This document shows positions 1,141 to 1,244 of a DNA stretch of 64,000 bases, one piece after another. The notes beneath the pieces are model-generated. The model was not told the origin of the DNA and made no database searches. It saw nothing but the letters and a program-made list of their open reading frames with translations. A program made the position numbers and the translations under genes. This DNA is from Escherichia coli O157:H7. GTDB taxonomy: Bacteria; Pseudomonadota; Gammaproteobacteria; Enterobacterales; Enterobacteriaceae. How positions within the stretch are numbered: position 1 is the stretch's first letter; each line of letters begins with the position of its first letter. The stretch is from assembly GCF_013167455.1 (NCBI RefSeq), contig NZ_CP038328.1, one strand, 5' to 3'.

Positions 1141-1166
1141 AAAAAAACCCGCCTGGCGACGGGTGT
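1141..1166 (-). terminator. tR'-like intrinsic terminator downstream of the late promoter
   Basis: Minus strand reads CCCGTC-GCCA-GGCGGG followed by TTTTTTT, about 80 bp downstream of the Q stop. Confidence 0.55.
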
Positions 1167-1204
1167 AAAAAATCTTCTAACGTCAGGCATAAAACGCCCA
1201 TCGT

Positions 1205-1244
1205 TAGGGCAAATTTACCACAGATTCGGGAAAAATCAACAAAG
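1205..1244 (-). promoter_or_regulatory. Putative Q-dependent late promoter pR' / qut region
   Basis: Minus strand TTGATT, 16-nt spacer, TGgTAAATT (extended -10-like), immediately after the Q stop. Position matches lambda pR'. Confidence 0.4.

Follow-up and report, generated by a model that had tools for sequence, protein, structure and literature searches.

[quoted passage not shown] The QBE is located between the −35 and −10 hexamers (PMC9388147; PMC6266700). The SDPE is composed of AACGAT at +1 to +6 and a discriminator-like sequence, and it holds RNA polymerase at +16/+17 of PR' for the loading of Q (bioRxiv 10.1101/2022.01.24.477500; PMC9388147); in the loading complex of lambda Q, region 4 of sigma has moved to a position immediately upstream of the SDPE (PMC9388147). 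Lambda Q gives its name to the Q-lambda family of Yin et al., which corresponds to PF03589 (PMC9388147), and short late-promoter RNAs are known for lambda, 21, phi80, 82 and P22 (PMC7547250). In the GenBank record of Salmonella phage P22, the annotated late promoter, qut-like site, 5' nucleotide of the late RNA (at the first A of AACGAT) and tR' are arranged like the elements described here.

We analysed a site of this kind in a 64-kb stretch of Escherichia coli O157:H7 DNA, which we call the window. We consider it the cassette that regulates the late genes of a prophage of the lambda-Q family, with a probability of roughly 0.85. The cassette appears to be canonical (PR', putative Q-binding spacer, sigma-dependent pause element and tR') because the gene in front of it encodes a Q of the lambda family and because its promoter core and pause element match the PR' of lambda and P22. 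The finding is an ordinary one, since this type of cassette is well known, and it adds nothing new on the mechanism of Q antitermination. The gain is in annotation: the cassette gives predicted start and stop points for late transcription in this O157 prophage, in a module where RefSeq annotates nothing except the Q gene.

Organization of the region behind the Q gene

A previous sequence-only reading of this DNA had described an extended −10 element and a terminator close behind the Q stop codon, and had taken them for a late promoter/tR' pair under the control of Q. Both elements are present on the minus strand, and the assignment agrees with the Q-family gene upstream, the lambda/P22-type core and pause element, the terminator and the late genes downstream. 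The defining pause element, AACGAT at +1 to +6, had been missed. The features, in the direction of transcription, are as follows.

1245..2066, minus strand: gene of the Q antiterminator, 273 aa (Pfam PF03589, BLASTP and PDB match)
1247-1245, minus strand: stop codon of Q, TAG (sequence)
1239-1234, minus strand: −35 hexamer TTGATT of PR', separated from the Q stop by five bases (sequence)
1233-1218, minus strand: 16-nt spacer TTTCCCGAATCTGTGG, candidate QBE (from the position of the lambda QBE)
1220-1212, minus strand: extended −10 element TGgTAAATT, −15 to −7 (sequence)
1207..1212, minus strand: TTGCCC, at the position of the pause-associated −35-like TTGACT of lambda (by-eye alignment with lambda)
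1205, minus strand: predicted start site, +1, an A (homology with lambda and P22)
1205-1197, minus strand: pause element AACGATGGG, +1 to +9, with AACGAT at +1 to +6 followed by a discriminator-like GGG triplet
1190/1189, minus strand: predicted promoter-proximal pause, +16/+17 (analogy with lambda PR')
1164-1140, minus strand: intrinsic terminator tR', with a 7-bp GC-rich stem, a 4-nt loop and T7 (pattern scan and fold)

The −35 hexamer occupies the same position as TTGACT in lambda and P22 and is kept in the relatives. The last three bases of the spacer, TGG, supply the TG of the extended −10 element, whose hexamer TAAATT (1217-1212) is identical to the PR' −10 of both phages and is followed by TGCCCT; the pause element is identical in lambda and nearly so in P22. 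Written out in full, the window carries TTGATT-16-TAAATT-TGCCCT-AACGATGGG, lambda TTGACT-17 nt-TAAATT-TGACTC-AACGATGGG, and P22 TTGACT-17-TAAATT-TGACTC-AACGATGGA. The block common to the window and lambda is therefore GGTAAATTTG..C..AACGATGGG, while the identity with both PR' promoters spans GGTAAATTTG..C..AACGATGG. By its sequence alone the promoter, TTGATT-16-TGgTAAATT, is of the sigma-70 type, and the pause element likewise corresponds to that of a Q-lambda-type cassette; we regard the latter as the most diagnostic part of the site.

Two further details of the start region can be compared with lambda. In that phage a −35-like TTGACT takes part in the pause, and TTGCCC, which sits one base upstream of our pause element, may be its counterpart, albeit as a weak match (4/6). 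The consensus for pausing is G-10 Y-1 G+1, and U17/G18 together with the G at +8 would fit it.

The whole unit, from the promoter to the T-tract, ends 105 nt past the Q stop. Between AACGATGGG and the terminator hairpin there are 32 bases; the tR' stem, ACCCGTCGCCAGGCGGGT, occupies 1164-1147 (ACCCGTC-GCCA-GGCGGGT) and the T7 tract 1146-1140, past the pause site and ahead of the late genes. Another hairpin, TGCCCTAACGATGGGCG (1211-1195), was flagged by the scan as terminator-like; we rejected it as the late terminator, as its 5' arm lies upstream of the predicted start site and it is not conserved in P22.

A bare pattern of promoter plus terminator is weak evidence here, because the promoter falls below the cut-off of the generic sigma-70 scan (9/12, against hexamers of 4/6 and 4/6, so that it is absent from the scan list) and because terminator-like sites are not rare in the region (11 were found by pattern scan in positions 1-5000 of the window, when 5.9 ± 2.5 were expected). 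What supports the site is homology and conservation. The two scan results would suit a reading in which the hairpin and its T-tract only end the early transcript that carries Q, the promoter hexamers occur by chance and there is no late promoter. Against this, the −10 hexamer and the pause element together reproduce lambda PR', and the composite TAAATT-N6-AACGATGGG (21 nt) occurs exactly once in the 64-kb window, where the only two further matches have 3 mismatches each, at about chance level. Moreover, no other late-gene promoter was found between Q and the lysis cassette, and the layout is kept behind Q genes of 31-60% identity, including the experimentally characterised P22 and lambda. We thus consider the absence of a late promoter extremely improbable.

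Genes downstream of the cassette and the wider window

Late genes follow the cassette on the same strand. The annotation of an identical O157 genome places a holin, a lysozyme, a spanin-like protein and a terminase downstream, and the part that lies inside the window contains the following.

1007-645, minus strand: TerB/TciA-like pseudogene with internal stop(s) (RefSeq annotation of the identical O157 genome, Pfam)
648-481, minus strand: DUF3927/TciB-like gene, intact, 55 aa (RefSeq, Pfam)
473-307, minus strand: STnc100-like RNA (Rfam STnc100, 101.6 bits, gathering score 47)
279-261, minus strand: second terminator (terminator scan)
166-1, minus strand: start of a SASA/NanS-p esterase gene, which runs off the window

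The TciA/TciB cargo behind tR' resembles a decaying moron at the place where Stx phages carry stx. The STnc100 match lies between tciB (DUF3927) and nanS-p, inside the predicted Q-controlled late transcript, and is followed by the terminator at 279-261. According to a 2026 preprint, STnc100 is common next to the prophage Pas sRNAs and is similar in structure to PasD.

On the other side of Q, upstream of the DUF968-RusA-Q block, a hok/sok type I toxin-antitoxin locus occupies 4097-4271 and 3947-4159 (both on the minus strand), with a Rfam sok score of 114 bits and an annotated hokD; the same placement is seen in K-12 Qin. An isrK-like match at 3857-3938 (minus strand) is weak (27.7 bits, gathering score 50, E 0.005). 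Its end is formed by a good terminator (3878-3861), directly after which comes the DUF968 gene; the match may be a distant analogue of IsrK, which in Gifsy-1 is linked to an antitermination-regulated promoter, or a chance match. At the far end of the window, the sRNA SraB (49421-49589, minus strand) and the rne 5' UTR element (51439-51775, plus strand) are host chromosome sequences, and therefore this end lies outside the prophage, near rne.

The Q protein and the candidate Q-binding spacer

The gene immediately upstream of the promoter encodes a PF03589 protein (Antiterm, E 7.8e-49). In BLASTP its alignment with lambda Q begins at Met1 and extends to the C-terminal VTR (32% identity, 274 columns, E 7e-41), tblastn gave 40% identity over the aligned 78%, and the protein also matches the solved Q-lambda structures 7ubm (7ubm_Q, E 1.1e-39), 4mo1 and 7ubj in the PDB. 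It is 66 residues longer than lambda Q, and its zinc-ribbon "arm" contains four CxxCxGxG repeats instead of two, an expansion that appears in Pfam as a sub-threshold DnaJ_CXXCXGXG match. The AlphaFold model has a mean pLDDT of 78.6, with values of 55-79 in the zinc-repeat region.

Codon 187 of this Q (TTT, 1508-1506, minus strand) encodes Phe, while a Cys is found at this position in 17/17 other aligned members of the family and in 74 of the 80 nearest IMG/VR relatives. This position belongs to the third CxxCxGxG (DnaJ-like) repeat, of which it is the second Cys, and therefore the O157 allele has probably lost one zinc ligand. Q-dependent read-through may be impaired by C187F in this strain, an effect that is uncertain because lambda Q lacks repeats 2 and 3.

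The substitution raises the possibility that the cassette, intact as it looks, is a relic that has lost its switching in this strain and yields only its short terminated RNA unless another prophage supplies a compatible Q in trans. Such a reading would be consistent with the near-invariance of the Cys replaced, with the internal stop of the TerB/TciA gene and with the two copies of the module carried by some O157 genomes. It is opposed by the fact that lambda Q functions with two repeats, so that the extra zinc site may be dispensable, and by the identity of the Q allele across many O157 genomes, which fits neutrality or recent ancestry; the confidence of the AlphaFold model around residue 187 is only moderate. 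Overall we regard a loss of switching as possible but doubtful; the C187F allele could explain the silence of this prophage. The sequence-only reading had called the site the key control point for the downstream cargo. C187F and the pseudogene that comes first downstream weaken the claim.

The spacer between the −35 and −10 hexamers has a core, TTTCCCGAAnCTG, that is common to HK225, mEp237 and phiEt88, phages with a Q of 51-60% identity to ours, and this core recurs only behind Q proteins of 51-100% identity that share the C-terminal motif TD.ISLDTWKK. The spacer differs from those of lambda, SfV and others and has no resemblance to the lambda QBE. This distribution fits a co-evolving pair of Q and QBE. 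On the basis of its co-conservation with this clade of Q proteins, we propose TTTCCCGAATCTG as the candidate QBE sequence, to which Q might bind.

Proposed operation of the cassette

Returning to the reading of the site as a late-gene cassette, we infer the start site, the pause, the binding of Q to the spacer and the Q-dependent read-through by analogy with lambda. PR' would fire constitutively from A1205 with sigma-70. Sigma-70 region 2 would then bind again, to the −10-like AACGAT on the non-template strand, and RNA polymerase would be held at ~+16/+17 (1190/1189). When Q is missing, the polymerase would escape and stop at tR' (1146-1140), with the release of a ~65-nt RNA. When Q is present, it would bind the promoter spacer and load onto the paused complex, probably together with NusA. 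The Q-loaded polymerase would resist termination and pass tR', the terminator at 279-261 and later terminators, and the read-through would transcribe the TciA/TciB remnant, the STnc100-like element, nanS-p, the holin, the lysozyme and the terminase/head genes.

Conservation of the layout and leader length among relatives

To place the cassette among its relatives we used the Q loci of 15 annotated phages (Q proteins 34-93% identical) together with lambda, P22 and K-12 Qin, and a further set of 240 IMG/VR Q loci. The 17 curated relatives share one layout: a −35 hexamer, a spacer of 16-17 nt, a −10 hexamer, 5-7 nt, a hexamer whose second base is A and whose sixth is T (AACGAT, AACAGT, AACACT, AACGCT, AAGGAT, AATAAT or AATCGT) and an intrinsic terminator. 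Q genes of only 31-60% identity are followed by this arrangement; it was not seen in two distant homologues, PSTCR3 and mEp013. The records of HK225 and SfV annotate the equivalent terminator. Within E. coli, the 131-nt module was found in 1673 of 5426 complete genomes (~31%), usually in one copy per genome, and in two copies in some O157 genomes.

We measured leader length from the first base of the pause hexamer, taken as +1, to the last T of the tract, with the following results.

Window: 65 nt
Evi: 66 nt
640R1: 65 nt
HK225: 55 nt
mEp237: 55 nt
phiEt88: 69 nt
FSL SP-016: 67 nt
ST104: 69 nt
Klebsiella phage 6: 71 nt
2H10: 64 nt
SfV: 65 nt
K-12 Qin: 63 nt
YeP3: 58 nt
KPP5665-2: 64 nt
P22: 59 nt (already annotated in GenBank)
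lambda: 193 nt (193-194)
Salmonella phage SI5: 197 nt

Leaders of 55-71 nt are thus found in 15/17 curated loci, and the only long ones are those of lambda and of SI5, whose leader is homologous to the lambda 6S RNA. In the IMG/VR set most leaders are of ~55-75 nt, with one very long case. Automatic calling of promoter and SDPE mis-anchored the Klebsiella-type clade, in which the −10 hexamer was taken for the SDPE, and apparent IMG/VR leaders near 100 nt are start sites mis-anchored in the calling; we called these loci again with a wider gap range, dropped the obvious mis-anchors and re-anchored four leaders by hand.

A compact leader is the rule in the lambda-Q family and lambda is the exception. 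The observation that the leader is much shorter than that of lambda was correct (~65 nt versus 193 nt); its shortness is real, but it is not a special feature of this site, being the norm of the family and already annotated for P22, where ~59 nt suffices as room for Q loading before the terminator. This corrects a textbook bias: the 194-nt 6S leader of lambda is atypical, and ~55-70 nt is usual in the lambda-Q family.

Structure and conservation of the leader RNA

The terminated leader RNA is predicted to be ~63-66 nt long. Its minimum free energy fold consists of two hairpins (−21.3 kcal/mol, z −2.7; 3 of 200 shuffles fold as well), which succeed each other as a 5' hairpin (+1 to +27), the single-stranded AGAAGAUUUUUUACA and the terminator. 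Upstream of tR' it therefore adds two elements to the features listed above.

1205-1179, minus strand: 5'-terminal leader hairpin, +1 to +27, with outer stem AACG/CGUU and inner stem GGGCGU/AUGCCU (MFE fold)
1178-1165, minus strand: single-stranded linker AGAAGAUUUUUUAC, A/G-rich and then U-rich, which joins the two hairpins (fold)

Variation among the 80 closest relatives is concentrated in the terminator. Its stem reads ACCCGTC/GGCGGGT, CCCGCC/GGCGGG or ACCCGC/GCGGGT, always with the pairing and the T-tract kept. In congruence with this compensatory variation, RNAalifold recovered the tR' hairpin as a consensus helix in 24 diverse leaders; at two of the seven pairs, both bases are replaced in 9-10 sequences.

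In the other hairpin, the 5' arm corresponds to the transcribed sigma-dependent pause element. We found a 5' hairpin in the leaders of lambda, P22, HK225, ST104, SfV, K-12 Qin and the IMG/VR loci L101-L260. The pause-hexamer arm and the +19 to +30 segment change together (AACG/CGTT, AACA/TGTT, AAGGA/TTCTT), and the Klebsiella-type clade has pairs of its own (TCGT(G)/(C)ACGA, TCAT/ATGA, (G/A)ATTAT/ATAATT). Across 91 unique leaders the longest 5'-anchored helix had a mean of 5.15 bp, compared with 4.28 ± 0.14 bp when the 3' part was shuffled and 4.59 ± 0.16 bp when 3' parts were exchanged among leaders that differ at the 5' end; the observed value was reached by no replicate of either control. 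Because loop lengths differ, a whole-leader MAFFT alignment failed to register the hairpin and a trimmed alignment was used. In the 21-sequence short-loop alignment 92.4% of the cells pair, against 29-51% for slid partners, and 11 sequences have A-U at pair 4-23 where the other 10 have G-C. The G-U pairs speak for an RNA structure and not for one of DNA. The covariation is suggestive and not proven, given the relatedness of the sequences and the small number of independent events.

These results lead us to a tentative proposal, to which we give a rather low probability: that the leaders of the lambda-Q family share a 5' hairpin kept by compensatory changes and that the ~65-nt leader may be a constitutive prophage sRNA. 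We found no description of the hairpin in the literature searched, which did not extend to the older lambda literature; if true and undescribed, the hairpin would add a component at the RNA level to a textbook switch.

The site might also, or mainly, be an sRNA gene whose constitutive ~65-nt product acts in trans through Hfq in the manner of StxS, a reading that is compatible with the cassette. StxS provides the precedent, as in Stx phages the PR'-tR' transcripts are Hfq-binding regulators of rpoS and stx1 (PMC7547250). Our leader has a suitable outline, with a 5' hairpin, a single-stranded linker containing AGAAGA (ARN) and a U-rich part, and a terminator with U7, and the sequence of the linker is conserved in SfV, Qin and FSL SP-016. 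Nevertheless, the leader has no sequence similarity to StxS: it gave no BLAST match to PR' regions of the 933W/Sp5 type, and the StxS region of 933W is unrelated. Nor has it meaningful complementarity to the rpoS activation site. We rejected a StxS-like activation of rpoS, as RNAduplex gave long-loop duplexes that were no better than those of shuffles and a search for contiguous pairing matched only the terminator/U-tail near the rpoS site. Furthermore, no Rfam family covers 1140-1244 at the gathering level; the sole match, suhB/mmgR (20.5 bits, E 0.86, gathering score 41), was treated as chance, and the leader sequence was not found in the supplementary files of the Hfq-CRAC study (Tree 2014). 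We therefore judge an in-trans role of the StxS kind unlikely.

A piece of the leader is also found elsewhere. The 30-nt stretch GCCTGACGTTAAAAGATTTTTTAC, which includes the linker (1165..1178) and comes without the terminator hairpin, recurs in Stx2c and some Stx2a phages, ~215 nt past the end of an unrelated Q of 162 aa; in phage 2851 this region corresponds to positions 1490-1535 of our locus L100, between Q and the tRNA-Ile upstream of stx2c. Recombination with a lambda-Q-type module has apparently left this piece behind as a scar. We rejected it as a shared control element, since it is a relic behind an unrelated Q and has no hairpin.

Comparison with known systems

The PR'-tR' unit of the Stx phages (StxS; Sp5/Sp15, 933W) resembles our cassette in its logic: a constitutive late promoter is terminated early in lysogeny, giving a short RNA (PMC7547250), and toxin or moron genes lie behind it. 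In contrast, its Q belongs to a different family (144 aa), its PR'-tR' distance is 258 nt, with a transcript that is processed to 74 nt, the two units have no sequence similarity, and our leader lacks the rpoS seed. The GenBank record of 933W contains a "possible" terminator, GAACCCGCCGATGCGCGGGTTTTTTT (positions 727-749 of our locus L261), ~30 nt past the annotated PR' promoter and upstream of the tR' that was used to define the 258-nt StxS precursor.

The locus of K-12 Qin quuQ (ydfT), whose type is also represented by SfV and 2H10, likewise has a long-form Q, and its PR'-like TTGCAT-17-TAAAAT is followed by AACGATGGGC. Qin has a related leader sequence (GGGCTTTGTATACCCGACGTTAAGAA) and a terminator that gives a 63-nt leader. 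Loci of this type differ from ours in their Q proteins, which are 37-43% identical to that of the window, in their spacer and in their morons, cspF/cspB.

With lambda the cassette shares a PF03589 Q, TAAATT, AACGATGGG at +1 to +9, a terminator and the late genes downstream. However, the lambda leader has 193 nt instead of ~65, and its promoter combines TTGACT with a 17-nt spacer and no TG, whereas the window has a −35 hexamer of 4/6, a 16-nt spacer and a TG extension. The spacer of lambda, its putative QBE, is unrelated in sequence to ours, its Q lacks 66 residues and two CxxC repeats of the window Q, and its promoter begins ~45 nt past the Q stop and not 6 nt past it.

Finally, the P-late/t-late unit of P22 (gene 23) differs in that gp23 is nearly identical to lambda Q and goes with a lambda-type spacer, while the window Q is ~32-40% identical and has a spacer motif of its own. 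In layout, P22 is as compact as the cassette described here, with a tR' located 30-58 nt past the RNA 5' nucleotide and a leader of ~59 nt.
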